Shown: positions 1,382-59,451 of the stretch, piece after piece
Numbering within the stretch: position 1 is the stretch's first letter
How the letters are laid out: each line of letters opens with the position of its first letter
Source: a virus
Lineage: Duplodnaviria; Caudoviricetes
Strand: one strand, 5' to 3'
Length of the DNA stretch: 64,000 nt
Virus record (IMG/VR): IMGVR_UViG_3300028797_000159
Span: 1 to 64,000 of that record
The notes under the pieces: generated by a model
Seen by the model: the letters and a program-made list of their open reading frames with translations, nothing else
Told to the model about the DNA's origin: nothing
The model's database searches: none
Program-made: the position numbers and the translations under genes

Positions 1382-1476
1382 TGTATCGAAAATCCCTGAT
1401 ACAAAAATTTTGTTTACAAGGCAAATCATCTGCAGTATAATATACTCATAAATTGAATGACAATGGACTCATTCAA
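1382..1476 (+). promoter_or_regulatory. repeat cassette copy 1
   Basis: TGTATC-gaaaatccct-GATACA; -35 TTTACA 1413; -10 TATAAT 1436; hairpin ttgaatga/tcattcaa. Confidence 0.9.
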
Positions 1477-1492
1477 AAGTAAGAGGTTTATT

Positions 1493-2158
1493 ATGACAGA
1501 TAATTTTAATATTATTAAAGTGTTTATTCAATCACAATGGGGTGATTCATTCGATAAGCTTGACGATCTATTTTATACTATTGAAATTATCTACAGAACA
1601 AAAGATGGTGATACTATTGCAGCTATACCACGTAGTGGTGGTAATAGATTACATTGCATTAAAGTTTATTATATCAATAAAATTAGTGACTTTGATAAAT
1701 ATAAATTAGAAATTATAAAACTTTGTGAAGATTTTAATGCACGTGCTTATTTTTCAATAAATGTTAAATCATATGAACATATAACAAAAGCCTGCATGGT
1801 AGAATTTGCAAATAGAATTTCTATAGCTAATTATCATAAACCACAATCTATTTTTGAATCATGCACAGCTAAATATGTTAATAAGTCTAATCAATTATGG
1901 ATTTTAGACGTTGATAAAGAAGACGCAGATCACATGAATATGTCTATTGGTGATCTTGCTGAATTCTATAAAAAGATTGTTGAGGAATGCAGACCTAATA
2001 AACCAGTTGTTACTATTATTCCTACAAAATCTGGTAGACATATTATCTGCCATCCATTTGACACATTGAATTTCTTTGATAGAATTTCTATTAAACAAAA
2101 TAAAGATTCTATTATTAAGAAAAATAACAACACTTTACTTTATGAAAATATAAAGTAA
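1493..2158 (+). CDS. hypothetical phage protein, possibly AEP-like fold
   Basis: Start moved to ATG 1493 after AGAGG; WILDVD and TKSGRH resemble DxD and sxH motifs. Confidence 0.5.
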   Translation: MTDNFNIIKVFIQSQWGDSFDKLDDLFYTIEIIYRTKDGDTIAAIPRSGGNRLHCIKVYYINKISDFDKYKLEIIKLCEDFNARAYFSINVKSYEHITKACMVEFANRISIANYHKPQSIFESCTAKYVNKSNQLWILDVDKEDADHMNMSIGDLAEFYKKIVEECRPNKPVVTIIPTKSGRHIICHPFDTLNFFDRISIKQNKDSIIKKNNNTLLYENIK

Positions 2159-2224
2159 ATATATTCATGTTAAACATTTAGTTATATTATAATCATATAA
2201 TTTCTTAACTTGGAGGTTTTACAA

Positions 2225-2545
2225 ATGATTAATCGTAAATCAACTTTGGAATCACGTATTGCTAATTTAGAAAAAATGCTAAAGAATAACTTTAAATATA
2301 AAGTAAATGAAGAGTTTGACGAAGAAAATGAAGAAATCATAGAGGAAGCCGCAATTTTTGACAAGGCCATTGCTGCTTTAAAGGACGCTAAGGAAAATAT
2401 TGATGAGCTAGCTGAGCGTAACTGGGACCAATACGATACTGAGGATAATAGTTATTATAGCAATATGTCTGCTGAATGTAGTAAAATGATTAAACTTCTT
2501 TCAATGTCAGTACGTAATCTAAGATCAACATTGAAAGAAGTTTAA
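2225..2545 (+). CDS. hypothetical protein with LESRIxxLEK motif
   Basis: GGAGG RBS at 2211; TLESRIANLEKML. Confidence 0.7.
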   Translation: MINRKSTLESRIANLEKMLKNNFKYKVNEEFDEENEEIIEEAAIFDKAIAALKDAKENIDELAERNWDQYDTEDNSYYSNMSAECSKMIKLLSMSVRNLRSTLKEV

Positions 2546-2580
2546 TAAATTTACAATTCATATTCATATTTGTATTAAAT

Positions 2581-2700
2581 TGTGTCGATAGCAATTCGAA
2601 AATCCCTATTGCTATTTGACACAATTTTTTATTTACAAGACAGGTTATTTGTAGTATAATATACCTATAAAATGAATGAGTTAATGGTAGCTCATTCATT
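2581..2700 (+). promoter_or_regulatory. repeat cassette copy 2 (variant half-sites)
   Basis: TGTGTC...GACACA and atagcaat/attgctat inverted repeats; -35 2632; -10 2655; hairpin aatgaatgag/ctcattcatt. Confidence 0.85.
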
Positions 2701-2730
2701 ATAATAACTTCTTTATAGGGAACTTAAATT

Positions 2731-2934
2731 ATGTCAGCTAAAGCTAAGTATAATTATTATAATATTTGTCGTGAAATTCTCGATAACTTTGGTGCAACTA
2801 ATTGGATTGGTAAGAAAGATATTGATGACTATTTAGACATTTATTATAATGAAATGAGTGACGAAGATCGTGAATGGGTCTTTTATAAAATGGAAAAATT
2901 TGCTGACATAGATTATTACCGTTCAGTATTTTAA
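2731..2934 (+). CDS. hypothetical protein
   Basis: ORF directly downstream of cassette 2. Confidence 0.6.
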   Translation: MSAKAKYNYYNICREILDNFGATNWIGKKDIDDYLDIYYNEMSDEDREWVFYKMEKFADIDYYRSVF

Positions 2935-2989
2935 CAATAATACATTAATTGTATTAATATGTTCAACATATTGAATAAGGGTTTATAAA

Positions 2990-3235
2990 ATGAAGCAGGC
3001 TAAAAAGTATTACGAATGGTCAATCGTCTATATGACAAAGAGCGGTAAAACTGAGATTATTCTATGATCTGATAGAAAAGAAGCGAGTGCAGTTCAAAGG
3101 GTCTTTACATTATTAGAAGATAAATCGTTTGCAATTCATGTTCTTGACATTTTCGTATATGCTATGCCTAGTGGAAAGCCTTTCATAAAGATTAATACTA
3201 TTTCAAAAACAGTTGTTAGAAGCAAACTATGTTGA
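2990..3235 (+). pseudogene. small ORF interrupted by in-frame TGA at 3065
   Basis: Frame open on both sides of a single TGA (82 codons in total). Confidence 0.5.
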
Positions 3236-3274: not shown

Positions 3275-3415
3275 TTTACATGTCGTATATTTATCAGTTT
3301 GTATTGATAATAAATCTAAAATCCCTGATACAAAATGATGAATTTTTTCTGTTTACAAGACCTCAAACCAGTGCTATAATATGTTCATAAATTGAATGAG
3401 AATGGTTCCTGTTCA
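3275..3415 (+). promoter_or_regulatory. repeat cassette copy 3
   Basis: tttacatgtcgta box; aaaatccctgataca; -35 3352; -10 3375. Confidence 0.9.
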
Positions 3416-3435
3416 CATTAAAAGAGGTTGATTAA

Positions 3436-3669: not shown

Positions 3670-3732
3670 TTGACGAAGTAAAGGAATCGTGATACTATAT
3701 TACCATAATGAATGGAAATGGATTCTATTCAT
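3670..3732 (+). promoter_or_regulatory. minimal cassette: promoter plus leader hairpin only
   Basis: TTGACG 3670, 17 nt, TACTAT 3693; hairpin atgaatggaa-atgga-ttctattcat. Confidence 0.7.
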
Positions 3733-3749
3733 ACTGAAAGAGGTTGATT

Positions 3750-4850: not shown

Positions 4851-5027
4851 AAGTGCATTAAATTGTTTAAGGGTATTTACATGTCGTATGTATCAGGGAT
4901 TTTCACCACTGCATCGACAATGTATCGAAAATCCCTATTACAGTTTGATGCACTTTTTTTGTTTACAACTAAGGCTTTTTGCAGTACAATATACTCATAA
5001 ATTGAATGGCAATGGGTGCTGTTCAAT
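4851..5027 (+). promoter_or_regulatory. repeat cassette copy 4 (long outer stem)
   Basis: aagtgcattaaattgt/acagtttgatgcactt stem; inner tgtatcagggattttc/gaaaatccct; -35 4962; -10 TACAAT 4985. Confidence 0.9.
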
Positions 5028-5049: not shown

Positions 5050-5343
5050 ATGCAGAAAGCTTATTCCTTCAAAGACATTGTTGTTGAACATGCTAACCTG
5101 TTCGTCGTCGACTGCATTCAGAATGGTTTTACCATTGATAATAGAGTTTGTTCAAATAAACCCAATGTTTACAAAATTGGCCTGACCAAAGATATTGGTG
5201 ACATCACTGTTACGATTATCAATCGTGGTCATGAAATTCAGGTCAAACGTCACTATGACATAAAAAGTGCAGGTCATAAAACTCAAAAATCATTCATCTA
5301 TAAGAAGAATGATAATGGCACTTACACTCTTAAATGCATTTAG
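5050..5343 (+). CDS. hypothetical protein
   Basis: True start ATG 5050 after AAGGAG; the track's N-terminus is cassette sequence. Confidence 0.65.
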   Translation: MQKAYSFKDIVVEHANLFVVDCIQNGFTIDNRVCSNKPNVYKIGLTKDIGDITVTIINRGHEIQVKRHYDIKSAGHKTQKSFIYKKNDNGTYTLKCI

Positions 5344-5362
5344 TCTAGCACAATAGAGTCCA

Positions 5363-5403
5363 TATATTACACTCATAAATTGGATGGAAAGGTTCCATCC
5401 AAT
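5363..5403 (+). promoter_or_regulatory. minimal cassette: -10-like element plus leader hairpin
   Basis: TATTAT-acactcataa-attggatggaa-agg-ttccatccaat; -35 weak. Confidence 0.55.
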
Positions 5404-5423
5404 AAAGCATAGGAGACTTCGAT

Positions 5424-6892: not shown

Positions 6893-7034
6893 AAGTGCAT
6901 CATATTTGTATTCAGATTATGTCGATAATGAATCGAAAATCCCTAATACAATTTGATGCACTTTTTTTGTTTACAAGACAGACAATTCGCAGTACAATAT
7001 ACTCATAAATTGAATGGGAATGGATCCATTCAAT
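6893..7034 (+). promoter_or_regulatory. repeat cassette copy 5
   Basis: aagtgcatca/tgatgcactt stem plus T-run; -35 6970; -10 TACAAT 6993; hairpin ttgaatgg/ccattcaa. Confidence 0.9.
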
Positions 7035-7055
7035 ATCCATAAAGGAGAATCAAAC

Positions 7056-8871: not shown

Positions 8872-9927
8872 ATGAGCGAAATTAAATTTGATGCAAATAA
8901 TGATAAATTAAAATTATTCTTTTATACAATGTATGAGCGCCAGCAAATTTGGTATAAAAGATTTATTTTACAGCTTCCACAAGAAAAGTGGACTAATAAT
9001 GAGTATTATTCTAAATACCGTTTTACAAATGTTTATCGCGAACTAGATCGTGCATCACAATATTTGCTAAAATACATTATTCTAAATAAAGATAGTTGGC
9101 ATAAATACGATAATAAAGATGACAATTATATAAATTTAATCTGGAAGATTTTATTTTTTAGAATGATAAATAATCCAAGAGTATTAACAAGTGTAGATGC
9201 TATTGCTGATTTTGATAAATATAATCCAGATGAGTTTTATTCATATTTAAAAGAAAATGTAATTGATAGGGACATTCCATTTGCTCATGGTGCTTTTTGT
9301 CAATGGTCAAAGCACGAAATTGATGAGAATGGTAATAAACTTAAGTTTGATAATATGCCTGAATTCTTTGCAAAATATTTACTTGCAAGATTACATTTAC
9401 ATATTAAAGACATATATCAGTGGATGAAAGATTCATTTTCTAATGAAACCACAGCTGATAATTTTATTGATTATATGTATCATACAATCGATGGTTGCGG
9501 TCGTTTTATCGCACATGAATTCTTTCAAGACTTATGTTATATAAAACCATATATTGGTTTAAATTTAATGCGATATACCGTTAACGATGCTACAAATGCA
9601 GGTCCAGGATCAAGCGCTGGTGCAAAGATTATTTTTAATAATGTAAAAACTAAAAAAGATGTGATTAATGCAATTAAATATTTACGTGATATTTCTGAAG
9701 AATGTTTAAAAGAAATTCAGAAAGAACAATTTGCTGATACTGATGGTTTTTATTTTATTGAATGGGATAAAGACAATAACACATATAAGCATACTGGATT
9801 TAACCTTACATTAAATCAAATTGAGATGTGGTTATGTGAGTTTAACAAATACATGAATTATGTGAATTCTACAGGCCGTACAAGATTATATAATAATATT
9901 AAAACGACAGATGATTTAGTTTATTAA
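8872..9927 (+). CDS. aGPT-Pplase / 5-hmdU DNA kinase helical-domain family protein
   Basis: YERQQIW, YRFTNVYRELDR, ILFFRMIN, GPGSSAG, IEMWLCEFNKY motifs. Confidence 0.75.
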   Translation: MSEIKFDANNDKLKLFFYTMYERQQIWYKRFILQLPQEKWTNNEYYSKYRFTNVYRELDRASQYLLKYIILNKDSWHKYDNKDDNYINLIWKILFFRMINNPRVLTSVDAIADFDKYNPDEFYSYLKENVIDRDIPFAHGAFCQWSKHEIDENGNKLKFDNMPEFFAKYLLARLHLHIKDIYQWMKDSFSNETTADNFIDYMYHTIDGCGRFIAHEFFQDLCYIKPYIGLNLMRYTVNDATNAGPGSSAGAKIIFNNVKTKKDVINAIKYLRDISEECLKEIQKEQFADTDGFYFIEWDKDNNTYKHTGFNLTLNQIEMWLCEFNKYMNYVNSTGRTRLYNNIKTTDDLVY

Positions 9928-9947: not shown

Positions 9948-10090
9948 AAGCGTATTGAGCTTGTGTCAGATTGTATCGATAATGAATCGAGAATCCCTGA
10001 TACAAATTCAATACGCTTTTCTTGTTTACAGATTTTGATTTTTGCAGTATAATATGTCCATAAATTGAATGGGAATGGATCCTATTCTAA
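9948..10090 (+). promoter_or_regulatory. repeat cassette copy 6
   Basis: aagcgtattga/tcaatacgctt stem; -35 10025; -10 10048. Confidence 0.9.
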
Positions 10091-14395: not shown

Positions 14396-14537
14396 AAGTG
14401 TATTAGATTTGTATTCAGATTGTATCGAATTTAATTCGAAATCCCTGATACAAATTTAATACACTTTTTTCGTTTACAAGCTGCTTAATCTGCAGTATAA
14501 TATGTCCATAAATTGAGTGATAATAGTGTTGCTCAAT
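14396..14537 (+). promoter_or_regulatory. repeat cassette copy 7
   Basis: aagtgtattagatttgtat/atacaaatttaatacactt stem; -35 14473; -10 14496; hairpin attgag/ctcaat. Confidence 0.9.
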
Positions 14538-14553
14538 AGCAAAGGATTTAAAC

Positions 14554-16683: not shown

Positions 16684-16824
16684 TATGTGTATCAGGGATT
16701 TTTATTTTATATTGAAACTGTGTCGAAAATCCCTGGTACAAAATGACATAATTTTTCTGTTTACAAACAAATTCCTTTGCAGTATAATATACCTACAAAA
16801 TGAATGAGAGTGGACTCATTCAAT
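16684..16824 (+). promoter_or_regulatory. repeat cassette copy 8
   Basis: tgtatcagggattt/aaatccctggtaca inverted repeat; -35 16760; -10 16783; hairpin tgaatgag/ctcattca. Confidence 0.9.
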
Positions 16825-16840
16825 AGACTAAGAGGTTATT

Positions 16841-18655: not shown

Positions 18656-18804
18656 TTTACAGGTCATATTTCATATTTATCAGTTTGTATCTGACAATAA
18701 ATCAGAATCACTGATACAAAAATAATGCACTTTTTTGGTTTACATTATCGTTATTTTGATGTATAATATATTTATAAATTGAATGAGAATAGACTCGTTC
18801 AATT
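18656..18804 (+). promoter_or_regulatory. repeat cassette copy 9 (upstream of the tRNA cluster)
   Basis: tttacaggtcata box; aatcactgataca; -35 18739; -10 18762. Confidence 0.85.
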
Positions 18805-18967
18805 ACATATAATAAGATTTATATATGTAACAGTGATCTTCAGGCATAAACGTTGATGATATAACGTTCGCCCAATATGGAAGTTCCGATAAATTCCATA
18901 ATATCGTATGATTCCGAAGTACAAGGAATCTTAATATTATGGTAACCTATAGTAATATAGGTAATTT

Positions 18968-19051: not shown

Positions 19052-19055
19052 TTAT

Positions 19056-19279: not shown

Positions 19280-19283
19280 TTAT

Positions 19284-22469: not shown

Positions 22470-22518
22470 ATTATATAAATATAATTTAAGCACATTCAAT
22501 TGAATGTGCTTTTCTTTT

Positions 22519-22636
22519 TGTATCGAATTTATTCACAAAATCCCTGATACAAAAATGATACAAAAATTTTATTTACAAACCAGAATACTTGCGGTATAAT
22601 ATACTCATAAATTGAATGGCAATGGTACCATTCAAT
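22519..22636 (+). promoter_or_regulatory. repeat cassette copy 10
   Basis: Two tandem tgatacaaaa; -35 22572; -10 22595; hairpin attgaatgg/ccattcaat. Confidence 0.9.
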
Positions 22637-22732
22637 ATAATAATATCTAACTAATATTATTATATAATATAATAAATAACTATCTATGAATTATAATTTA
22701 TAGATTCTTTTAATTTATGGAGAATAAACAAT

Positions 22733-26289: not shown

Positions 26290-26518
26290 TGTATCTGATA
26301 TAATTCAGATACTATATTGATACAAATATGACCTGTAAATTTGGCACAATTTCTGCATTAGAAGATTCCATGCCAGATACAAAATTTTATTGTATCAGAT
26401 AATGTTTGATAATAAATCTAAAATCCCTGATACAGTTTGATGAATTTTTCCTGTTTACAAAGAGAACCGTTTGAGGTATAATATACTCATAAATTGAATG
26501 AGAATGGGCTCATTCAAT
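26290..26518 (+). promoter_or_regulatory. repeat cassette copy 11 with expanded upstream half-site array
   Basis: TGTATC 26290 and 26391; GATACA 26319 and 26376; -35 26454; -10 26477. Confidence 0.85.
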
Positions 26519-26536
26519 AATCCTATAGAGTAAGTT

Positions 26537-26773
26537 ATGCCTACAGAAGCTGAGTCTAATCTTTATAAACAGTCTGCAACCTATAAACATTTTGAAGTAA
26601 TGCATAATCTTCGTGCACTTGCCTCATGGACTGTAAATGAAAAAGCTTATAAGATAGTAACAAAAGCCATTCGTGATTTAGAGGCTCTTGATAATTGGGA
26701 CTTTGGTGAAGACAGCAATGGTAAAATTCATCGTGAGTTGCTTCCGCTGTCAAATCCAGATTGGAAGGAATAA
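26537..26773 (+). CDS. hypothetical protein
   Basis: Single gene between cassettes 11 and 12. Confidence 0.65.
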   Translation: MPTEAESNLYKQSATYKHFEVMHNLRALASWTVNEKAYKIVTKAIRDLEALDNWDFGEDSNGKIHRELLPLSNPDWKE

Positions 26774-26774
26774 A

Positions 26775-26898
26775 TTTGCACGTCGTATCGAATTGTATCG
26801 AAAATCCCTGGTACAATTTGATACGATTTTTTTGTTTACAAGCTAACAGTTTTGACGTATAATATACCCATAAATTGAATGAGAATGGACTCATTCAA
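26775..26898 (+). promoter_or_regulatory. repeat cassette copy 12
   Basis: -35 26835; -10 26858; canonical hairpin. Confidence 0.9.
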
Positions 26899-26922
26899 GC
26901 TTTCCATACAAGGAGAATGCTT

Positions 26923-30395: not shown

Positions 30396-30541
30396 TGAGG
30401 TATCATGGGTTTAACTATTATATTTTTAATAACATTAGCAATAGTATTATTTATATTAATAGCTACTTTGGTTGATATATTTACAAGTCGTAATAAATAA
30501 AATATAAAGCATAGTAAATTAATTACTATGCTTTATTTATT

Positions 30542-30676
30542 TGTAGGGATTTTTATTTTGTATCAGATAATGAATCGAAAATCCCTGATACAATTTGATA
30601 CAATTTTTGTGTTTACAAGCCACTTGATTTGCCGTATAATATACCCATAAATTGAGCATGAATGGTTCAGCTCAAT
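30542..30676 (+). promoter_or_regulatory. repeat cassette copy 13
   Basis: -35 30612; -10 30635; hairpin attgagc/gctcaat. Confidence 0.9.
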
Positions 30677-30694
30677 CACCTAGTGGAGGAAAGT

Positions 30695-34942: not shown

Positions 34943-35060
34943 AAGTGTATTAAATTTGTAACTGGATTATATCAATAATAAATTAAAAATCCCTGATACA
35001 AATTTAATACACTTTTTCTATTTACAATGAGGCAATTTTATTGTATAATATATTTATAAA
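34943..35060 (+). promoter_or_regulatory. repeat cassette copy 14 (leader hairpin decayed)
   Basis: Perfect 18-bp aagtgtattaaatttgta/tacaaatttaatacactt; -35 35021; -10 35044. Confidence 0.8.
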
Positions 35061-35202
35061 TTAAATAACAATATTATATATTGGATAATATTATGCGTAA
35101 CATCGATTCTGAAGACGAACCGTTTGTATTTATATTTGCAATGATAGTTATTGCAGGATTAGTTATTGGTATTATGAAACTTATTATGGTGTGAGGATTC
35201 AC

Positions 35203-37677: not shown

Positions 37678-37822
37678 CATGATGCGTAAATTTGTATCGA
37701 AATTGTATCGAAGTTATTTCAAAAATCCCTGATACAAAAATGATACAAAAAATTTGTTTACAAATCAGGGGACCTGAGGTATAATATACTCACAAAATGA
37801 ATGAGAATGGATCTTGTTCATT
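37678..37822 (+). promoter_or_regulatory. repeat cassette copy 15
   Basis: TGTATC x2 and GATACA x2 at 11-bp period; -35 37757; -10 37780. Confidence 0.9.
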
Positions 37823-38307: not shown

Positions 38308-39195
38308 ATGAATAGAAATCAATATAAGCTAGCTTGTCTTAATAAAGTTGTAGGAATCCATAAATGGGAATACAAAGTAAAAAGATTACAAAGGTCATTA
38401 AAATATAATAATGATCCTAATGCAAATTGCATTCATCATTTACAAGATACTGAAGAGCAAATAAAGTATAACGATGAACATTATGAGTATTTTGGTTTCA
38501 ATGAAGATGGAACGTTTGAGTATGGAAAATACGTAATATTTGTAACTAAAGAGTGGCATGATAATTATCATCGAAATTCTGCATTAACAAAACAACGTAT
38601 AAGCGATGGATGTAAACAAGTATGGCAACGCGATGGTTATCGTGAATATATGAGTAAAATGCATAGTGATTATTATAAGGATAATCCAGAAGCTATTGAA
38701 AATATGAAAGCTTTTTCAAAAGAATATTGGACAAACAAACGTAGGATTGAGGCTAGTGAACAAAGATCACAATATTATTTAGAGCATCCAGAAACCAAAG
38801 AACTTATTAGTCAAAATAGAAAAGGTAAATGCGTAGGTAAAGATCATCCATTTTATGGAAAACATCATACTGATGAGACTAAAAATAAAATTAGTATTTC
38901 ACAAAAAGCTAATATGACTGATGAGCATAGGAAGGTTATTAGTGAAGCTACTAAAGAAGCGATGAAAGACCCTATTATAAGACAAAAAATTATAGATGCA
39001 AATACAGGTGAAAACAATCCTAATTATGGAAAACCACGAGATGATGAAACACGTTCAAAAATAAGTCAATCTAAAAAATCTTATATGTTAAAATTAGGTG
39101 ATCTATTTAGAGAATATAAAGCAAATGGTGGAACATTGAAATGGAATCAGTTTCAGACATATGCTAAAGATAATCATTTGTTAGATGATAAATAG
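38308..39195 (+). CDS. HNH/NUMOD3 homing-type endonuclease
   Basis: IHH...EWHDNYH; HPFYGKHHTDETK; NPNYGK. Confidence 0.75.
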   Translation: MNRNQYKLACLNKVVGIHKWEYKVKRLQRSLKYNNDPNANCIHHLQDTEEQIKYNDEHYEYFGFNEDGTFEYGKYVIFVTKEWHDNYHRNSALTKQRISDGCKQVWQRDGYREYMSKMHSDYYKDNPEAIENMKAFSKEYWTNKRRIEASEQRSQYYLEHPETKELISQNRKGKCVGKDHPFYGKHHTDETKNKISISQKANMTDEHRKVISEATKEAMKDPIIRQKIIDANTGENNPNYGKPRDDETRSKISQSKKSYMLKLGDLFREYKANGGTLKWNQFQTYAKDNHLLDDK

Positions 39196-39215
39196 TCTCT
39201 AATAAGAGGGAGATT

Positions 39216-39332
39216 TGCATCGATAATAAATCAAAAATCCCTGATACAAATTGATGAATTTTTCTTGTTTACAAACGAGGTCACTTAGTATATAATATCC
39301 TCATAAAATGAATGGAAATGGATCCATTCATT
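39216..39332 (+). promoter_or_regulatory. repeat cassette copy 16
   Basis: -35 39268; -10 39291; hairpin aatgaatgg/ccattcatt. Confidence 0.9.
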
Positions 39333-39352
39333 AGACTATTGGAGATTGAATT

Positions 39353-40400: not shown

Positions 40401-40552
40401 TATGACCCGTAAATTGTATCAAAATTCATCAAGCTTGCATCGAAATTACATCAAAAATCCCTGATACAAAATGATACAGAAATTTTGTTTACAAGACTCT
40501 GAATTTGGGGTATAATATGTCCATAAATTGAGTGAGAATGGACTCATTCAAT
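40401..40552 (+). promoter_or_regulatory. repeat cassette copy 17
   Basis: Reverse-orientation box tatgacccgtaaa; -35 40488; -10 40511. Confidence 0.9.
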
Positions 40553-40571
40553 AGAATACTTGGAGGTTATT

Positions 40572-41067: not shown

Positions 41068-41076
41068 TTGAATATA

Positions 41077-41209
41077 TTTACACATCATATTTGTATCAGA
41101 AATAAATCGGAAATCCCTGATACAAATATGATACAAAAAAGTTGTTTACAAGCAAAGTATTTTGCAGTATAATATGTTCATAAATTGAATGAGAATGGAC
41201 TCGTTCAAT
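41077..41209 (+). promoter_or_regulatory. repeat cassette copy 18
   Basis: tttacacatcata box; -35 41145; -10 41168. Confidence 0.9.
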
Positions 41210-41226
41210 AATCAAAGGAGTTTATT

Positions 41227-46836: not shown

Positions 46837-46900
46837 TATATTATAATTAATATTATTAATCCCTAATATAGTATTTATTCTATATTAGGGATTTTTATTT

Positions 46901-47019
46901 TGTATCAAGCAATAAATCGAAAATCCCTGATACAAAAATGATACAAAAAATTTGTTTACAAACAAATTACTTTGCAGTATAATATGCCTACAAAATGAAT
47001 GAGAATGGACTCATTCAAT
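46901..47019 (+). promoter_or_regulatory. repeat cassette copy 19
   Basis: -35 46955; -10 46978; canonical hairpin. Confidence 0.9.
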
Positions 47020-47179
47020 ATTGCAAATAAGGAACATACAAATGTTGACAATGCTTGAATTGACTATTATTGCTATTGCTTTCTTTGCATTTTATGGTTT
47101 AATTGGTAAATGGATTAAACTGACTGAAGAAAATATTTATAAAGTAAATCATATTTAATATTTTAAATATAGGTGTTTT

Positions 47180-49501
47180 ATGACAAATAAATTTTATGAA
47201 TCAATTAAATATGCAACACAAGAATCACAAGTGCAAGAAGCATATAATAATGTATTTAAGTCATATTTCAATATTTCTTTAATTGAAAGAAAACATCAGT
47301 GCGATGGTTATTTTAAAACTGTCACACAAAATGGTAAAGATATATCAGTGCTTATTGAATATAAATACGATATTCATATGAAAGATAGGGTACAACGTAG
47401 TAAGGTTATTGCACAATGTTTAGGTTATATTAAAAAATTTGAAGAATCTGGTGAAAACATTCCTAAACTTATTTTCATTGGTGATATTAATGAATGCACT
47501 TTAATTCATACAAATGATATTATTAATCTACTAGACACTGAAGGTGTTGATTGGTCTATACCACCATCAAATATGAGTGATGCTAACCCAAATCTAGTAT
47601 TAGCAATAGCTAATACAGTAAATCCATGGGTTTATGATGTAAATGATGATTTTAATATTAAAGATGTAGTTGATAAGATAGTTGACCTATGCAGCAACAT
47701 AAGTAGAAAATTACATATCACAGAAAAGAATATTGAAAAAGTGTATAATCTATTTTGTGACAGGGTTATTAAAGATAAGAAAAAGATTCCAGCAAATGAT
47801 TTGGTTGGAACATTTATTGGTGTGATGCTTGACGCCGAACATTATTATCAACACCCAAAGAAAAAGAATATTCTTATTGCTAATGATAAACAAGTAGCTA
47901 TTAATGGTGATCAGTTTGAATTGTTTATGCAAATGCACTCAACTGAATACTCACCAAAAGAAAAACGAATTATGACTGCTATTAGTGATCGTCTTATTGA
48001 AGATACTAATAGACGTAATAAAGGTGAATTTTATACACCTACATTATTCGTAGATTATGCACATGGCATGATTGAAAAAGAATTAGGCTCTCATTGGAAA
48101 GAGAATTATGTAGTATGGGATCCAGCTGCTGGAACGCTTAATTTGACTAGGGATTATAAATTTAAAGAGCTATATTGCAGCACATTAGAACAAGCTGAAT
48201 TAGATATTAGTAAAAATTATAATAAAGAAGCAACAAAGTTTCAATTTGATTTTTTAAATGATAGTCTTGATGATTTAAAAGTAAAAGCACCTGGATTATT
48301 AGAAGCATTTGAATTAAATAAACCTATTTGCTTCTTCATTAATCCTCCTTATGGTAGTGTTGGAAAAAGTGAAGGTGGTAAGGGTGACAAAGGATTGACA
48401 GCTGGTGAGGCAAACTCTAGAGTAAAAGAACGAGCTATTTGTCAAGTACGTGATTTACTAGTTCAATTCATTTACAGAATAACTGAAATTAAAGAAAATT
48501 ATAAATTAACTAACTGTTATCTGGCTTGTTTTACAAAACCTACATGGTTAACAGCAAATATTTATAAACCATTTAGAAAATTATTTATGAGTAATTTTGA
48601 ATACAGGTCTGGCATACTATTTAATGCTGGTGAGTTTGCTAATGTGAGTGCCAAGTGGGGAATTACATTTAATATTTGGAAAACTGGTAAGTACGAATCA
48701 TCAGAATATATTCATAGTTTAGTTAAATCAGTTGATTCAGAAGTTAAAGTTGTAGGTGTCAAATGTTTATACAATAAAGATGACACAACTCACAATATCA
48801 GTAAATTATTAACTAAACATGGGAATAGTCTTAATTTAAGATGTTCTCACAGGGAAGATGTACAACACTTTAATTATAATGGTATTTACACTCATGGTGG
48901 TGAAAAAGATATAAACGGTATAAATTTTGAAGATGCTATTATTTACACATCAGCAAGAACACTAACAGTTTCATCATGGATTAATGATAAAGATAGACTT
49001 TTAGAGCCAAACAAAAGGCACCATCAATATAAACAATTTTACTTAGACTCTATTATATTAAATATTTTTAGTTATCAACAGTCTTACAGATTTAATGACA
49101 GACCTGATGAGATAAATAATTATTTCTGGATGTCAAAACAAGAAATACTTGATCTTGCAGAAGAGTATAATAATGACTATACATATGAAGATGCTTTAAA
49201 TTCAGATGAAAGATTTGTATATACAAAACTACAAGAGATTAAAGATGATTTATCACCTGAAGCAAAAGCTGTATTAGACAAAGCGACAGAGCTTGTTAAG
49301 AAGTCTTTTAAATATCGCGAATTATTTAATGACTCTCATCCTGAATATCAAATCAATAATTGGGATTGCGGATGGTATCAGCTTAAAGCTTTATTAAAAG
49401 AATTCATGTCAAATGAATTAAAAGAATTTAGGGCATTATATAAACAACTAGCTGATAAAATGCGGCCTATGATTTATGAATTAGGTTTCTTAAGAAAATA
49501 G
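47180..49501 (+). CDS. type IIG-like restriction-modification fusion (PD-ExK nuclease plus N6-adenine MTase)
   Basis: CDGYF...LIEYK; GEFYTP; VWDPAAGT; FFINPPY. Confidence 0.8.
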   Translation: MTNKFYESIKYATQESQVQEAYNNVFKSYFNISLIERKHQCDGYFKTVTQNGKDISVLIEYKYDIHMKDRVQRSKVIAQCLGYIKKFEESGENIPKLIFIGDINECTLIHTNDIINLLDTEGVDWSIPPSNMSDANPNLVLAIANTVNPWVYDVNDDFNIKDVVDKIVDLCSNISRKLHITEKNIEKVYNLFCDRVIKDKKKIPANDLVGTFIGVMLDAEHYYQHPKKKNILIANDKQVAINGDQFELFMQMHSTEYSPKEKRIMTAISDRLIEDTNRRNKGEFYTPTLFVDYAHGMIEKELGSHWKENYVVWDPAAGTLNLTRDYKFKELYCSTLEQAELDISKNYNKEATKFQFDFLNDSLDDLKVKAPGLLEAFELNKPICFFINPPYGSVGKSEGGKGDKGLTAGEANSRVKERAICQVRDLLVQFIYRITEIKENYKLTNCYLACFTKPTWLTANIYKPFRKLFMSNFEYRSGILFNAGEFANVSAKWGITFNIWKTGKYESSEYIHSLVKSVDSEVKVVGVKCLYNKDDTTHNISKLLTKHGNSLNLRCSHREDVQHFNYNGIYTHGGEKDINGINFEDAIIYTSARTLTVSSWINDKDRLLEPNKRHHQYKQFYLDSIILNIFSYQQSYRFNDRPDEINNYFWMSKQEILDLAEEYNNDYTYEDALNSDERFVYTKLQEIKDDLSPEAKAVLDKATELVKKSFKYRELFNDSHPEYQINNWDCGWYQLKALLKEFMSNELKEFRALYKQLADKMRPMIYELGFLRK

Positions 49502-49989: not shown

Positions 49990-50020
49990 AAATCCCATAT
50001 AGTTAACTATATGGGATTTT
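49990..50020 (+). terminator. intrinsic terminator, identical to 59298-59328
   Basis: aaatcccatatagttaactatatgggatttt. Confidence 0.8.
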
Positions 50021-50025
50021 CTATT

Positions 50026-50155
50026 TGTATCTGAAGTATTTCAAAATAGTATTCAAAATCCCTGATACAAAATTATGCAAAAATTTTGTTTACAAGGCAG
50101 TAGTCCTGTGGTATAATTATCCCATAATCGTTAAGGCAAAGAGCCTTACGCGATT
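50026..50155 (+). promoter_or_regulatory. repeat cassette copy 20 (unrelated leader hairpin)
   Basis: -35 50089; -10 50112; hairpin aatcg-taaggc/gcctta-cgatt. Confidence 0.85.
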
Positions 50156-51228: not shown

Positions 51229-51298
51229 TCTCATATAAGTTAAAAACCCTCTAATTTAAATTAGAGGGTTTTTATTTTATTATTTATTATGTAAAAAC

Positions 51299-51426
51299 TA
51301 CGACCTGTAAATCGAAATATTTCGAAGAATCCCTGATACAATTTGATACACTTTTTATGTTTACAGACTTTAATTTTTATAGTATAATATGTCTATAAAT
51401 TGAATGGATGGAATGGGTCCTTCCAG
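51299..51426 (+). promoter_or_regulatory. repeat cassette copy 21
   Basis: Reverse box tacgacctgtaaa; -35 51360; -10 51383. Confidence 0.88.
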
Positions 51427-51444
51427 TAAACAAAGGAGTATAAT

Positions 51445-52715: not shown

Positions 52716-53075
52716 ATGCTTACAAAATTTAATAATATGGATGCTGTTGTGTCTGATGTTGTTCATTCATGTATTAACGACGGTTATAAGATTGATGTAG
52801 AAGAATCAATAATTGATTATGAAGAAGATAAGAACTGTGTATTTAAAACTGTTCTGAAAAAAGATGTTGATGGAATTGAATGTAAAACTGTTATTACACT
52901 CAATAGCAATGAAGATGATAAAACTAAATATTGCACTTATCACAAAGTAGAGATTGTTGGTGATACTAAATGGAGTGAAGAAACTTATACATATAATTAT
53001 ACAACTAACAAGTATAAACTAAATAACACTGTTAAAGATAATTCTCTAAATAAAACAAATAATAATATTATATAA
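52716..53075 (+). CDS. hypothetical protein, related to 63..638
   Basis: CINDGYKID. Confidence 0.6.
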   Translation: MLTKFNNMDAVVSDVVHSCINDGYKIDVEESIIDYEEDKNCVFKTVLKKDVDGIECKTVITLNSNEDDKTKYCTYHKVEIVGDTKWSEETYTYNYTTNKYKLNNTVKDNSLNKTNNNII

Positions 53076-53124
53076 ATAATTCCTGATATTATGATAATGT
53101 CATAGTGTTAGGAATTATTTATTT

Positions 53125-53239
53125 TTATCGAATCTGTATCAAAAATCCCTGATACAAATTGATGAATTTTTCTTGTTTACAAATCAGTGATCTTGAAGTA
53201 TAATATACCTATAAATTGAATGAGAATGGACTCATTCAG
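53125..53239 (+). promoter_or_regulatory. repeat cassette copy 22
   Basis: -35 53176; -10 53199. Confidence 0.9.
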
Positions 53240-53258
53240 TGAACTATGGAGACTCACA

Positions 53259-53767: not shown

Positions 53768-53864
53768 ATAATATTATAGGAATAAGTTATGTTCGATATA
53801 TTATTAATTATAAGTGGAACACTTTTGTTTATTTCTGTAATTATGTATGCTGAACATATTTAAA

Positions 53865-54003
53865 TTTACATGTCATAGTTTCAGTCTGTATCGAAATAAA
53901 GTCAAAAATCCATGATACAAAATGATGAATCTTTTTTGTTTACAAGGATAGACTTTTGGACTATAATATGTCCATAAATTGAATGAGTCCATTCTCATTC
54001 AAT
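53865..54003 (+). promoter_or_regulatory. repeat cassette copy 23 (inverted leader hairpin)
   Basis: -35 53939; -10 53962; hairpin attgaatgagTCCATTctcattcaat. Confidence 0.9.
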
Positions 54004-54021
54004 AACCTAATGAGGTACCAA

Positions 54022-54347: not shown

Positions 54348-54653
54348 ATGAGTACTTGGGAAAGCTTGGATTATGCACCTTTTAACGGTGATGAGATTAT
54401 TTGCACACATTTTTATTGGAATCCAGTTGTTACTAACAAAGACCCTCATTATAGAGTATTTTTAAAACATAAAGATGGCACTATTAATAGTGTAAGAAAA
54501 TACACAATTGACATTATGAATTCATATATTAAAAGTGTAATGAACTCTAATGATGTTGTTGATTACATGCTGTGTGAATGGGTAAATAACGAATACCGTG
54601 AATGTAGACATTCTAAAGGTTGGAATATTAAAATTAAAGACCTTAAATATTAA
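54348..54653 (+). CDS. hypothetical protein
   Basis: GGAGG RBS. Confidence 0.6.
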   Translation: MSTWESLDYAPFNGDEIICTHFYWNPVVTNKDPHYRVFLKHKDGTINSVRKYTIDIMNSYIKSVMNSNDVVDYMLCEWVNNEYRECRHSKGWNIKIKDLKY

Positions 54654-54658
54654 GTATA

Positions 54659-54790
54659 TTTACACATCATATTTGTATTAGAAATAAATCGAAAATCCCT
54701 GATACAAAATGATGAATTTTTTCTGTTTACAAGGGCAAGTAGTTGTAGTATAATATACTCATAAATTGAATGGGAATGGTTCCTGTTCAT
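54659..54790 (+). promoter_or_regulatory. repeat cassette copy 24
   Basis: -35 54726; -10 54749. Confidence 0.9.
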
Positions 54791-54807
54791 AGACTGGAGG
54801 AATTATT

Positions 54808-56121
54808 ATGATGGAAATAAAAGGGAAATATTGTACTGCAAAAATATATGCTGGCACTATAGAAGATGGTGTAGTTGAACAGTTAAAAGAAATTGTAAAC
54901 TGTCCAGCTTTTAAAGATCAGCAGGTTCGATGTATGCCGGACGTTCATGTTGGTGCGGCAGGTCCATGCGGGTTAGTAGCAACTATTGGTGAATGGGTAA
55001 ACCCGCAACACGTTGGTGTAGACATTGGCTGTGAAGTTTCAATGGTTTTTCTTAATAAGAAAATACCTGAATTTATTTATAAAGAATTTGAGGCAAAAGT
55101 AAAAGAGCAAGTTAAATTTGGACAGACTATACACTCAGAATGTAAAGTTGACAAATTAGAATTTGTTAAATTTATTCAGGAAGGCTTTGATACGTATCGT
55201 GGCATTTGGCCTGATAAGTTATATGAACTTCCGAAAGTAGTAACTATTGAATACATTAACTCTGTTATTAGTAGAGTTGGCATAAATGAAGAACACTTTT
55301 GGCGTTCATTAGGAACTGTCGGTGGTGGAAATCACTATTGGGAATACGGTGAAGGTTCTGAAGGTAATACTTGTCATTACGCATATTCAGTTCATTGTGG
55401 ATCTCGTAACTTTGGTTTAAAAGTATGTCATTATTGGACTAAGTTGGCAGAGTGCGGTTTATCTAAAAGCGAAATTAAAAGCATTACTGATGCTTTAAAA
55501 GTAGAGTATTCAAATACTTACTCATCAATGGAAGGTTTTTCTGAAGCGTTAAAAGAAAAATTAGATATTGAAAAATCTAAAAAGATACCTGGCTATTTAA
55601 CAGGTGACTTACTTAGAGGATATCTTTGTGATATGTGTTTTGCTCAATTATATGCAAAATTTAATCATATTACTATAGAAAAAATTGTGAACGAGATATT
55701 AGGTCAATATGGTATACATCAAATAGACAGAATTTCATGTACGCATAATTTTATAGACTTAGAAGATCATACTCTGCGAAAGTCAGCTATTCGTTCATAT
55801 AAAGGAGAGCGACTTTTGCTTCCATTCAATATGAAAAGCGGAACTGCAGTGTGTGAAGGCAAGTCAAATACAGAATGGTTAAATGGTTGTGCTCATGGGG
55901 CTGGTAGAAAGATGTCACGTACTATGGCAAAGTCTAAAATTTCTTTAGAAGAGTTTAAACTTTCAATGGAAGGCGTTTATTCTACTACTGTTTGTGAGTC
56001 GACTATAGACGAGTCACCTATGGCTTATAAAGATACTGATGAGATTAAAAGACTAATATCTGAAACTGCAGATATTAAATTTATGATGTTACCTAAGATA
56101 AACATTAAAGCAACTGAATAA
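54808..56121 (+). CDS. rtcB: RtcB 3'-phosphate/cyclic-phosphate RNA ligase
   Basis: MPDVHVG, VGVDIGC, LGTVGGGNHYWE, VHCGSR, HNF, HGAGRKMSR, DESPMAYKD. Confidence 0.95.
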   Translation: MMEIKGKYCTAKIYAGTIEDGVVEQLKEIVNCPAFKDQQVRCMPDVHVGAAGPCGLVATIGEWVNPQHVGVDIGCEVSMVFLNKKIPEFIYKEFEAKVKEQVKFGQTIHSECKVDKLEFVKFIQEGFDTYRGIWPDKLYELPKVVTIEYINSVISRVGINEEHFWRSLGTVGGGNHYWEYGEGSEGNTCHYAYSVHCGSRNFGLKVCHYWTKLAECGLSKSEIKSITDALKVEYSNTYSSMEGFSEALKEKLDIEKSKKIPGYLTGDLLRGYLCDMCFAQLYAKFNHITIEKIVNEILGQYGIHQIDRISCTHNFIDLEDHTLRKSAIRSYKGERLLLPFNMKSGTAVCEGKSNTEWLNGCAHGAGRKMSRTMAKSKISLEEFKLSMEGVYSTTVCESTIDESPMAYKDTDEIKRLISETADIKFMMLPKINIKATE

Positions 56122-56155
56122 AAATACCGGACAATTAATAATTGTCCGGCACGGC

Positions 56156-57004
56156 TTAACAATTTGATCTTCCTGGGTAATATCCTTCTGGACAGACTGT
56201 TGATAAAATATCTTCTTTTCCATTTGTGTACCAATGCTTTTTATTTTTAGCTCTACTGCATTTTATTTTATTAGCAGTTTCTTGTGATACAGACTTACCA
56301 GGTCTAAATCCTTCAGGACATTCAAATGCTAAAGTATTTTCTTTTCCGTTAGTATACCAGTGTTTACCAAACGAGCCATTTTCTTTTCCAACAGTTTTAC
56401 CTTTATGTGCTTCACTTTGCTTTCTACGATGTTCTTCTGTTATTAGTGGTCTATTTTTTGCAGCGATACTCATATTAGAACGATGTTCATTTGAAAATAA
56501 TCTACCTTTAACAAACCCTTCAGGACATTCATAAGTAAATATATTTGTTTTCCCATTATTAAACCAATGTTTATTTTTACTATAGCAGCCGACAGATTTC
56601 ATTGATCCGTTGCTAATTCTTTCTTTCAATAGATTTGAATAATCTTCTCTTAATTTAGCATATTCTTCTGCAGATATTTTGTAATCTGAATTTGGGCGAC
56701 TCCAAAACGCGTGTAAAGCGAATCTCATGCTATTGCCAGGAAATATATTTACTAATAACTTATGACACTCATAGTGTTCGGTTGCAGTTAGCAACACCAA
56801 ATTAAATTTACATCTTTTAAATTCTGTAAAGATTGATCTAGGTAAGATATGATGACATTCATAATAGCTACCATTTCCCTTTTTACGTAAGCCTAACTTA
56901 CATTCTTGCTTTGCGCGAGAAATAATCTCAATATACTTTTTACATGAGTCAATAATTAAATTAACGCCGATAATACTTCTTACTAAACTTTTGTTATATT
57001 CCAT
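56156..57004 (-). CDS. HNH homing endonuclease with NUMOD3 and W(F/Y)xNG...CPEG repeats
   Basis: ECHHILPRS...NLVLLTATEHYECHKLL; three HW.TNGK..CPEG repeats. Confidence 0.85.
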   Translation of the reverse strand: MEYNKSLVRSIIGVNLIIDSCKKYIEIISRAKQECKLGLRKKGNGSYYECHHILPRSIFTEFKRCKFNLVLLTATEHYECHKLLVNIFPGNSMRFALHAFWSRPNSDYKISAEEYAKLREDYSNLLKERISNGSMKSVGCYSKNKHWFNNGKTNIFTYECPEGFVKGRLFSNEHRSNMSIAAKNRPLITEEHRRKQSEAHKGKTVGKENGSFGKHWYTNGKENTLAFECPEGFRPGKSVSQETANKIKCSRAKNKKHWYTNGKEDILSTVCPEGYYPGRSNC

Positions 57005-57092
57005 AATTATTCCTACAAATAAATAGTTAATACAACTTAACTTAGCTGTTTATGTATATAGATATTTATTGGAATAATAACTATTAAGATCA

Positions 57093-57371
57093 ATACTAGC
57101 AATAGGAAAAGGCAATGAAGATTGGAACTGTTCAGGTCCTCATGGTGCTGGTCGGTTAATGTCGCGTAAAGAAGCTAAACAGTCGATTTCAATGAAAGAC
57201 TTCATTAACTCAATGGACGGTATTTATACCACTTCCGTCAATGAAGGAACTTTGGATGAGTCACCGATGGCATATAAAAATGCGCAGGAAATTATTGACT
57301 GTGTGAAAGACACCGTTGATATTGTTACCGTAATTAAACCGATTTACAACTTCAAAGCATCTGATGTTTGA
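57093..57371 (+). pseudogene. rtcB: orphan 3' fragment of a second rtcB allele
   Basis: ILAIGKGNEDWNCSGPHGAGRLMSRKEAK...DESPMAYKN...KPIYNFKA; stop upstream, no start. Confidence 0.88.
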
Positions 57372-57784
57372 TAAATAAAATGCGACATATTAAATATGTC
57401 GCATTTTAACAGGAGATCTTAACATGGCATACATAGGCAATAGTATGAATAATATAAATGTGAAGTTTTCCTATAATGAATTTGGATTATTGCTTAACGA
57501 AAAGAATTCTTTTATTGGAATCAACTTAATGACGACGAAAAGAATAAATTAATTCAAGATTTGAAAAAGAATTTGAAAGTATTGGAACTGTTCTGTCAGT
57601 AACAGAATTAAACATAGCATTAAGATTTTTGCTTACGCTTAATTTAGGATTTGCTCTCTAACCAACCTCTATGTGTCTTATCTTAAATAAGAATTCAATA
57701 GTGGATTAAAATTTAGCCTCTAGTCGTGTATATTTTCAATACATTGCTAGAGGTTTTATTTTACTTTCATTTCTGGAGTTTAGT

Positions 57785-58474
57785 ATGGGCGTATATGATG
57801 ATGTAATATCTGAATTTTACGAAGACAAGAAACCTGGATATTGTTATAGATGCATGAGCTATTGCTGTATTCATAACAATGAAGAACTAAAAAGAGAAGC
57901 AGAAGAAAACGAAAGAAAGTGGCGAGAAGAAATTAAAAAGCGTAATGAAGTGTTTTCGCAGAAGTGTGCTGAAGATGCGCGTAATGAAGCGACGGGAAAA
58001 GAAATTGTAAGAAGTGTTCTAGATTTCTACAATGTAAAGCGAGATAAAGATTGGCCAACAAAAGTAATATGTGATAACAATGACACTTTCTACATATCTT
58101 ACTTGTTTGGGTTAGATAATGAACGTGATTTTTATATTTCAGTTGGCTCAGGTAAAATATCAGCAGATGATCTAGTAAAGAAATTAAAACAGCGAATTGG
58201 TGATTTTAATATGAAACATAATAGCAAACTTACTAAATTCAACGACATGTTTGCAAAGACTGTAAGCATCGTAAATAATGCAGCTGATGTAAACAAAGAG
58301 CGTCACATGTTAGAAGACTTGCTTGAGTTTAATAGAACAATGAAAAAGATTGAAAGCGATAGCGAGTATAACAAATGCGTTGCTGACATGTATGAATTAT
58401 GGGAAGCATTTTTAGCAGCTTATGACAAATGTAATACAGCATTAAAAACCGCGCTTAACAAATCAAGGTCTTGA
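57785..58474 (+). CDS. hypothetical protein
   Basis: 229 aa; CYRC/YCC; coiled-coil. Confidence 0.6.
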   Translation: MGVYDDVISEFYEDKKPGYCYRCMSYCCIHNNEELKREAEENERKWREEIKKRNEVFSQKCAEDARNEATGKEIVRSVLDFYNVKRDKDWPTKVICDNNDTFYISYLFGLDNERDFYISVGSGKISADDLVKKLKQRIGDFNMKHNSKLTKFNDMFAKTVSIVNNAADVNKERHMLEDLLEFNRTMKKIESDSEYNKCVADMYELWEAFLAAYDKCNTALKTALNKSRS

Positions 58475-58525
58475 TATGAATAAAATATCTTTGGCTCGTC
58501 TGTGCAAGGAGGGTAAGTAATAATT

Positions 58526-59293
58526 ATGAATCTAGGTGACCGCATGAAACAATATGAGTCAGTTAGTAAAACAGGTCTTATTCATAGAATGCCTGTTATT
58601 ATTAGATTAGACGGCTGCCATTTTCATACATTCACTAAAGGATTTGAAAAGCCATTTGATGAAATTTTAATGTCTTCAATGATGAAGACAATGAAATGTT
58701 TGTGCTCAAATATTCAAGGCTGTGTGTTTGGATATACTGAGTCTGATGAAATTTCATTGGTCCTTATTGATTATAAGAAGCTTAATTCATCAGCGTGGTA
58801 TGATAATGAAGTTCAGAAAATATGCTCAGTTGCAGCTTCGCTATGTACTTTAGCATTTAACCGTATATTTAGAGCAGAAGTTCATAGCCATGTTCCTGAG
58901 TATTTTAACGATAAAGAAAAAGGAAAGTGCCTATCAGCATATAACAAAGCATTAGAGTGTGGCGCGACATTTGACTGTAGAGCCTTCAATCTCCCTAAAG
59001 AAGAGGTATGTAATTATTTCATTTGGAGACAGCAGGACGCTACAAGAAACTCTATACAATCATTAGCGCAGTCTAAATTTTCGCATAAAGAGCTTCAAGG
59101 TTTATCATGTGATAAATTGCAGGACAAACTATTTAATGAATGTGGAATTAATTGGAATGATTTAGAAACTTTCAAAAAGCGTGGCACATCTTGTTTTAAT
59201 ACAGGTAGTGATTGGACTGTTGATTTGAATATGCCAATTCTAACTCAAGATAGAGATTACATTAATAAACACATATTTATTGAGTGCGAATAA
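58526..59293 (+). CDS. thg1: tRNA(His) guanylyltransferase / Thg1-like protein
   Basis: RMKQYE, IIRLDGCHFHTFT, YTESDEIS, FDCR, WRQQDATRNSI. Confidence 0.92.
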   Translation: MNLGDRMKQYESVSKTGLIHRMPVIIRLDGCHFHTFTKGFEKPFDEILMSSMMKTMKCLCSNIQGCVFGYTESDEISLVLIDYKKLNSSAWYDNEVQKICSVAASLCTLAFNRIFRAEVHSHVPEYFNDKEKGKCLSAYNKALECGATFDCRAFNLPKEEVCNYFIWRQQDATRNSIQSLAQSKFSHKELQGLSCDKLQDKLFNECGINWNDLETFKKRGTSCFNTGSDWTVDLNMPILTQDRDYINKHIFIECE

Positions 59294-59297
59294 TATT

Positions 59298-59328
59298 AAA
59301 TCCCATATAGTTAACTATATGGGATTTT
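59298..59328 (+). terminator. intrinsic terminator, identical to 49990-50020
   Basis: aaatcccatatagttaactatatgggatttt. Confidence 0.8.
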
Positions 59329-59332
59329 TATT

Positions 59333-59451
59333 TTGTATCAGATAATGAATCGAAAATCCCTGATACAAAATGATGAATTTTTTCTATTTACAAACCACTT
59401 GACTTGTAGTATAATATACTTACAAAATAAATGGGAATGGGTCTCATTCAG
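59333..59451 (+). promoter_or_regulatory. repeat cassette copy 25
   Basis: -35 59387; -10 59410. Confidence 0.88.

Follow-up and report, generated by a model that had tools for sequence, protein, structure and literature searches.

A dispersed promoter, terminator and leader-hairpin cassette as a probable boundary of early transcription units and recombination substrate in an uncultured phage

Why would a phage place the same element, always in the same orientation, ahead of one small gene after another? The question is raised by virus contig IMGVR_UViG_3300028797_000159 of IMG/VR (72,562 bp), the first 64 kb of which form the stretch analyzed here (the window). A first-pass annotation had listed 25 plus-strand loci in the window, at each of which an upstream operator array, a promoter and a leader hairpin follow one another, and had compared them to the promoter-early stem-loop (PeSL) cassettes of T4-type phages. 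We find a cassette of ~150 bases that heads at least 27 early gene units. It probably constitutes a self-contained boundary of early transcription units and at the same time a substrate for homologous recombination, a reading that we hold with a probability of just under 80%. The cassette is a more elaborate version of PeSL cassettes already described and does not constitute a new kind of system.

The promoter pattern TTTACA-N17-TAYAAT has 25 matches in the window, all of them plus-strand, and their positions coincide with the 25 loci of the earlier list. Dinucleotide-preserving shuffles of the window averaged 0.34 matches and never exceeded 2. A relaxed scan of both strands, which took in the contig beyond the window, located two further full copies (−35 elements at contig 68306 and 70056) and found essentially no copies on the minus strand of the contig. 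The 72.6-kb contig thus has 27 full copies, cited here by the position of the −35, which have a median spacing of ~2 kb and lie mostly ahead of small unannotated genes. The two minimal copies that had also been reported (3670 and 5363) do exist; they have weaker promoters and the hairpin, and lack the upstream box described below. The spacing of all cassette parts is fixed. A- and T-runs are found upstream of the promoters, and in anchored alignments TTTG-n-AG is conserved directly ahead of the −10. The −10 is followed by a conserved stretch that leads to the hairpin, whose stem has 10 bp and whose loop is of the AATGG type, and start codons occur 53–57 nt past the −10, each with a Shine-Dalgarno site.

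The cassette also occurs in relatives of the phage. A pattern scan of metagenomes gave 18 loci, only six of which were true relatives, the rest being chance matches in higher-GC contigs. L004, a 65-kb contig with 85% amino acid identity, has nine copies of the same three-part cassette, and the metagenome fragments L009, L010, L011, L017, L022, and L025 have the same cassette. Several more distant relatives differ in its parts. In L006 and L028 (~25% GC), the promoter and a related leader hairpin are present, and TTTACTGGAT repeats phased at 21 bp replace the box. L007 and L030 have GATACA repeats at 11 bp, L031 has TTGACA/TAGAAT hexamers and a GATACA/TGTATC palindrome that is arranged otherwise, and L027 (36% GC) has a weaker −10. 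The leader hairpin is kept in all these relatives, including those with other hexamers or upstream boxes, and is therefore the deepest-conserved part of the cassette.

The covariance model with which the structure of the leader hairpin was evaluated spans the −10 and the leader, and copy 50089 was purposely excluded from it. The leader was realigned by the model because MAFFT alone misplaced the 3′ arm. The model recovers every copy used in building it along with the minimal copies, and all window copies except 50089. The hairpin folds in 23 of the 25 window copies; it is degenerate in 35021, and 50089 has a different hairpin. In the model alignment, 87.6% of cells are paired, and eight of the ten pairs have changed on both sides (50 cells). 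The observed covariation values were matched by none of 500 shuffles, and sliding the 3′ partner collapsed every measure. Non-Watson-Crick cells comprise 58 G-U or U-G versus 11 A-C or C-A, from which it follows that the hairpin is constrained as plus-sense RNA. The AATGG loop and the 5′ arm are conserved in sequence, beyond pairing, between lineages with unlike hexamers and boxes. The leader hairpin matched no curated family in Rfam, and only five tRNAs in the window reached gathering scores.

The leader hairpin itself is not terminator-like. It occurs upstream of a five-tRNA cluster as well and is therefore not a translational operator. If transcription starts ~7 nt after the −10, as we assume, then ~4 unpaired nucleotides would precede the stem, and every early RNA would consequently open with the same 5′-terminal hairpin. 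Other candidate functions were rejected. A leader peptide within the hairpin is contradicted by reading frames that differ between copies and by stops that are no commoner than expected at 30% GC. A T4 late promoter (ATAAAT just past the −10) is contradicted by covariation of the adjacent position with its partner (9 A-U versus 35 U-A) and by four copies that break the motif. For CsrA-type binding of a GGA loop, the GGA is gone in several copies and in the L006-type relatives.

Two copies have unusual leaders. In cassette 23 (53939), the hairpin loop is reverse-complemented (53975–54003), with the stem, promoter, and gene keeping their orientation, and the model matches the minus strand as well. 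The loop of the L004 ortholog is in the normal orientation, which suggests a recent micro-inversion. Cassette 20 (50089) has a different, GC-richer leader hairpin (50118–50150). This hairpin is 95% conserved in the L004 ortholog and is therefore a stable second leader type instead of a product of decay.

Upstream of the promoter, AAAATCCCT is joined to GATACA in a near-invariant box of 15 nt, predicted to be centered near −62. AAAATCCCT is exact in 19 copies, with one mismatch in five and two mismatches in one (18739); copy 2632 has the CCCT box without GATACA. In 24 copies AAAATCCCT starts 33–35 nt ahead of the −35; in copy 1413 the distance is 24 nt, so that the box is closer by 10–11 bp, about one helical turn. 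A second GATACA-like repeat usually occurs 11 bp after the first, followed by a T- or A-run and then the −35. GATACA repeats recur widely across the relatives, and the box with AAAATCCCT is specific to this lineage. An IHF-like match in the box, with one or two mismatches on either strand, was set aside.

What had been called an operator array corresponds to a palindrome (TGTATC ... GATACA) around the box. This palindrome often either grows into a terminator or lies just behind one. Across 44 copies of the window and relatives, the upstream region takes several forms. In about 10 of the 44, the palindrome arms reach 19–29 bp and a T-run abuts the −35. Other copies have a separate canonical terminator just upstream (e.g., 46858–46893, 49990–50019, and 59298–59327), and some have an extra TTTACA-containing motif ~70–80 nt upstream of the promoter's −35. 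Putative terminator hairpins with T-runs are directly upstream of, or merged with, most cassettes. The 30-nt terminator hairpins at 49990–50019, 59298–59327, and contig 68210–68239, each upstream of a different cassette, are identical, and their 5′ arm begins with the same bases as the box (AAATCCC).

Gene content and cassette sequence were compared between the window and L004, which share 12 collinear blocks. Of the nine cassettes of L004, six correspond by position to orthologous window cassettes (86–90% identity). The other three are chimeric or replaced, each where gene content differs. The cassette at L004 6804 has the flank and upstream arm of window cassette 40488 and the spacer, leader, and gene of 41145, and changes from one to the other within the core that both share; relative to this chimera, the window has one extra 657-bp unit consisting of a cassette and two genes. 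At L004 5506, the whole cassette has been swapped, such that its terminator, promoter, and hairpin resemble those of window cassette 6970 and front an ortholog of the gene behind window cassette 37757. At L004 15035, the upstream terminator arm of 53176 is joined to the core of 53939.

Further exchanges are seen at cassettes 54726 and 26454. The RtcB at the locus behind 54726 (window 54808–57371) is only 34% identical to the RtcB of L004 and is a xenolog. A remnant of an L004-type RtcB, consisting of the last 92 residues and 93% identical, is present downstream at 57090–57371, and a minus-strand open reading frame without a family match (56156–57004) lies between the xenolog and the remnant. 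The replacement therefore begins at the cassette edge, and the 3′ end of the earlier gene seems to have stayed in place when the gene was exchanged. In L017, different genes are found behind the cassette at the position of window 26454. Within the contig, six cassette pairs share 40–70 nt of exact identity inside unrelated flanks, forming a patchwork pattern. The cassettes had been proposed to be seams of gene exchange, and the chimeras, the whole-cassette swap, the RtcB replacement, and the L017 event bear this out. A motif that served regulation only would leave gene order in relatives without indel breakpoints at the cassettes; this comparison was made, and such breakpoints were found.

These elements suggest how the cassette could work. 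An intrinsic terminator, either a separate hairpin or the extended palindrome arms with their T-run at the −35, would stop the upstream unit; the conserved box would bind a protein that tunes the promoter; and a near-consensus promoter for host sigma-70/sigma-A would start transcription. The 10-bp stem-loop, beginning ~4 nt after the predicted start, would most likely keep the 5′ end from being degraded, and a phage factor may recognize the stem-loop as well. The unit would be completed by a Shine-Dalgarno site, whose distance is fixed. The tracts of 40–70 nt that are identical between copies make the cassettes substrates for ordinary homologous recombination, and recombination between cassettes would delete, insert, replace, and re-head gene units. 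Stem-loops at the 5′ terminus stabilize mRNA in the E. coli ompA 5′ untranslated region, in Bacillus phage SP82, and in ermC-type leaders. The resemblance is that the hairpin here lies within a few nucleotides of the predicted 5′ end, in many transcripts and independent of the downstream gene. To our knowledge, known 5′ stabilizers are single-gene features without a conserved loop, whereas here one hairpin family heads ~25 units, the tRNA operon included.

Several observations weigh against this account of the cassette. The promoter, start-site, and terminator functions rest on consensus matches. A pure 5′ stabilizer needs no conserved loop, and here one loop is flipped and one hairpin is different. 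Pairing in the palindrome (30 G-U versus 18 A-C) is ambiguous as a signal of RNA versus DNA. Seven of 11 junctions touch a cassette, as compared with ~0.43 expected per junction, a difference that is not significant (p 0.09–0.20), so that enrichment is not shown statistically; the other four are independent of cassettes, and homing-endonuclease genes are involved in two or more of them. The T4-type affiliation derives from the capsid protein of one distant relative (see below). The conserved loop bears on another possibility, in which the hairpin is no passive stabilizer and serves chiefly as a cis-site for a dedicated RNA-binding factor of the phage, involved in nut/boxB-like antitermination or in processing. 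The AATGG loop and 5′ arm sequence have been kept across lineages with other hexamers and boxes, each unit ends before a terminator that an antitermination factor could override, and the hairpin heads the tRNA transcript as well. Lambda-type nut/boxB and HK022 put are leader RNA elements of early units, and the resemblance, an analogy only, would consist of a small conserved hairpin in an early leader and of units followed by terminators. Here, in contrast, a boxA-like partner is missing, an N-like gene was not identified, and copies are many rather than two. Annotation also gave no candidate binder, and the loop is flipped in 53939, replaced in 50089, and altered in the L006-type relatives. 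The sequence conservation could also partly reflect conversion between copies. We consider such a factor possible but doubtful as the main role of the hairpin. As to the box and palindrome, it is rather unlikely that they act as RNA, that is, as a terminator or attenuator of the upstream transcript, even though about 10 of the 44 copies have the long arms and abutting T-run, the terminator scan itself picked one box-enclosing copy (26782–26827), and G-U slightly exceeds A-C in the palindrome. Instead, the box most likely serves as DNA, binding a protein that modulates the promoter, because its most conserved bases sit unpaired in the loop of the long-arm hairpins (where the box is nonetheless at least 90% conserved), because it stays equally far from the −35 whether there is a T-run or a separate terminator and no T-run, because the single spacing variant is shifted by a helical turn, and because in relatives its place is taken by direct repeats with a phasing of 11 or 21 bp, from which no hairpin can form. 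An operator reading of the upstream box is thus plausible, with part of that region being a putative terminator hairpin. More speculatively, the cassette might be a two-key regulatory address, in which a clade-wide 5′ hairpin for a phage RNA-binding factor is combined with a lineage-specific box for a co-evolving DNA-binding regulator. The RNA factor would then act in antitermination, processing, or selective stabilization of early RNA, for example during host RNA degradation.

A regulon motif with no part in gene exchange would account for the nonsignificant junction count, for the six of nine L004 cassettes that are plain positional orthologs, and for the several indels that are homing-endonuclease insertions; adjoining rearrangements would be incidental, since whole-gene indels must fall in intergenic DNA. 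This explanation is improbable in view of base-level chimeras that switch inside the shared core, the second chimera, the whole-cassette swap, the RtcB replacement anchored at a cassette, and the 40–70-nt tracts identical between cassettes with unrelated flanks. The units, each a cassette plus gene, are unidirectional and exchangeable, and the first-pass annotation had likened them to an integron without an integrase. This analogy fails because no recombinase is annotated, because each unit has its own promoter, unlike integron cassettes, and because the crossovers fall within long, homologous, identical tracts, as homologous recombination predicts. No integrase (in particular, no tyrosine integrase) or recombinase is found among the annotated proteins of the contig or of the relatives' flanks, and there is no attC-like site. 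Against a mobile element, be it a miniature inverted-repeat transposable element (MITE) or one of the homing type, stands the absence of terminal inverted repeats with target duplications. An integron-like or other site-specific capture system, or a mobile element, is accordingly very improbable, and homologous recombination between cassettes remains the preferred explanation.

PeSLs are known from the T4-type phages RB49/phi1, PST/T4, and nt-1/KVP40 (Arbiol 2010, PMC2839356; Comeau 2014, PMC4122927), where their mechanism has been described and where the T4/PST promoter consensus is TTTACW-N17-TAYWAT (PMC2839356, PMC4122927). The sigma-70-type promoter here fits this consensus exactly. As in PeSLs, a composite terminator/promoter unit of ~100–150 bp occurs in tens of copies in plastic early regions; the sequence upstream is AT-rich, the 3′ end of the unit carries a Shine-Dalgarno site, and close relatives differ by chimeric cassettes and unit indels. 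The signature of the L004 6804 chimera is that of the RB49 ORF192 example of Arbiol et al. (PMC2839356). At the level of sequence, then, the proposed likeness to PeSLs is borne out throughout, in the promoter, the stem-loop terminator, the dispersed copies before small genes, and the breakpoints and chimeras. The cassette is more elaborate than published PeSLs, as had been suggested, and also more fixed. PeSLs fall into five positional subclasses, whereas the architecture here is fixed. The cassette further differs in having a second, non-terminator hairpin within the transcript, which covaries as RNA and is conserved across lineages; in having a near-invariant, lineage-specific 15-nt box near −62; and in its carrier, an uncultured giant phage with putative T4 affiliation.

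The idea of PeSLs, portable promoter/terminator units that double as recombination seams, is thus extended to uncultured giant phages of low GC content that form a large clade. Two features go beyond published PeSLs, namely a 5′-terminal RNA hairpin that is conserved between lineages and clearly under structural selection, and a lineage-specific box at a fixed, activator-like position. These provide a handle on how such phages might mark or control early transcripts, and if the cassette were a two-key address, cassette swaps would re-address genes between regulons. The two features also supply a ready-made model with which early regions can be sought in phage contigs from metagenomes.

Table 1. 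Positions of full and minimal cassette copies in window coordinates, all on the plus strand; terminators are predicted.
Element	Span	−35	Features
Cassette 1	1338..1478	1413	Box 24 nt ahead of −35; separate terminator 1336–1369
Cassette 2	2557..2700	2632	Variant palindrome arms, T-run abuts −35; 13-bp leader hairpin
Cassette 3	3277..3417	3352	
Minimal copy	3670..3733		TTGACG-N17-TACTAT and hairpin, no box; weak model match 3707–3733, E 0.28
Cassette 4	4887..5027	4962	−10 TACAAT; long-arm hairpin terminator encloses box
Minimal copy	~5340..5408		Weak −35, −10 TATATT; degenerate promoter and hairpin; 36.8 bits
Cassette 5	6895..7035	6970	Long-arm terminator; best match to L004 replacement of cassette 15 ortholog
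Cassette 6	9950..10090	10025	Long-arm terminator type
Cassette 7	14398..14538	14473	Long-arm terminator; compensatory stem changes; followed by small gene, RNA ligase 1
Cassette 8	16685..16825	16760	Inverted box copy ~33 nt upstream
Cassette 9	18664..18804	18739	Ahead of five-tRNA cluster 18967–20854
Cassette 10	22497..22637	22572	Separate terminator 22488–22511
Cassette 11	26379..26519	26454	L017: same-position cassette, different genes behind
Cassette 12	26760..26900	26835	19-bp hairpin terminator 26782–26827 encloses box; ahead of amidoligase genes
Cassette 13	30537..30677	30612	Terminator 30504–30536; stem fully compensated
Cassette 14	34946..35086	35021	Leader hairpin degenerate, likewise in L004 ortholog
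Cassette 15	37682..37822	37757	Terminator 37619–37652; different cassette type at L004 orthologous position
Cassette 16	39193..39333	39268	Within 1.6-kb segment absent from L004
Cassette 17	40413..40553	40488	Left parent of L004 chimera; heads 657-bp unit absent from L004
Cassette 18	41070..41210	41145	Right parent of L004 chimera
Cassette 19	46880..47020	46955	Terminator 46858–46893; ahead of conserved 773-aa gene
Cassette 20	50014..50154	50089	Terminator 49990–50019; different hairpin, conserved in L004 ortholog
Cassette 21	51285..51428	51360	Terminator 51241–51274; genes just downstream replaced in L004
Cassette 22	53101..53241	53176	Terminator 53074–53120; upstream part feeds L004 chimera at 15035
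Cassette 23	53864..54004	53939	Loop reverse-complemented
Cassette 24	54651..54791	54726	Ahead of RtcB; replacement versus L004 starts at 3′ edge
Cassette 25	59312..59452	59387	Terminator 59298–59327; 70-nt tract identical to copy at contig 68306

The carrier is a giant uncultured phage, probably of the T4 superfamily, as suggested solely by a Gp23-family capsid protein on the contig of one distant relative. This relative belongs to a group found in IMG/VR by protein similarity (44–47% identity, contigs of 255–380 kb), whose members lack the cassette; two others gave no match for the capsid protein. Scans of 40 proteins against Pfam and PHROG identified no T4 hallmark and no candidate regulator. 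Among deposited phages, a megablast search with 20 kb and a tblastn search with the 773-amino acid protein encoded at 47180–49501 found nothing, and RtcB had only distant matches; a search of IMG/VR with two cassette patterns gave no match. The 773-amino acid protein has thousands of uncultured homologs. In two of the more distant relatives carrying the promoter and hairpin, these occur as tandem units ~130 nt apart with no gene between (L006 3439–3640, 6329–6530, and 8972–9175; L031 6610–6815). The tandem units could be ‘empty’ cassettes that remained after loss of a unit, or deliberate double promoters.

The region encodes functions of early type. Those of RNA repair are represented by Rnl1, RtcB, and a Thg1-like gene, and further genes encode DNA ligase, DenV, SAM-lyase-like, dUTPase, thymidylate-synthase-like, and amidoligase proteins. 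The five tRNA genes behind cassette 9 are Leu-CAA, Gln, Tyr, Leu-TAA, and Ser-GCT. A 557-amino acid protein with a trypsin-like protease domain is encoded at 45163–46836, between the SAM-lyase-like gene and cassette 19, and is absent from L004. Homing-endonuclease-like genes (NUMOD3, HNH) are located at 38245–39195 and 43182–44132 (minus strand), and in relative L026 at 53–775 and 1736–2749; two such genes explain L004 indels that are unrelated to cassettes. Last, a gene set typical of DNA base hypermodification is distributed over 8872–9927, 26875–29985, and 35191–35895, and consists of two amidoligases, a GATase-like gene, an HMUDK-like kinase, and the thymidylate-synthase-like gene. Similarly, the relatives L006, L007, L027, and L030 have TAGT and HMUDK_hel domains.

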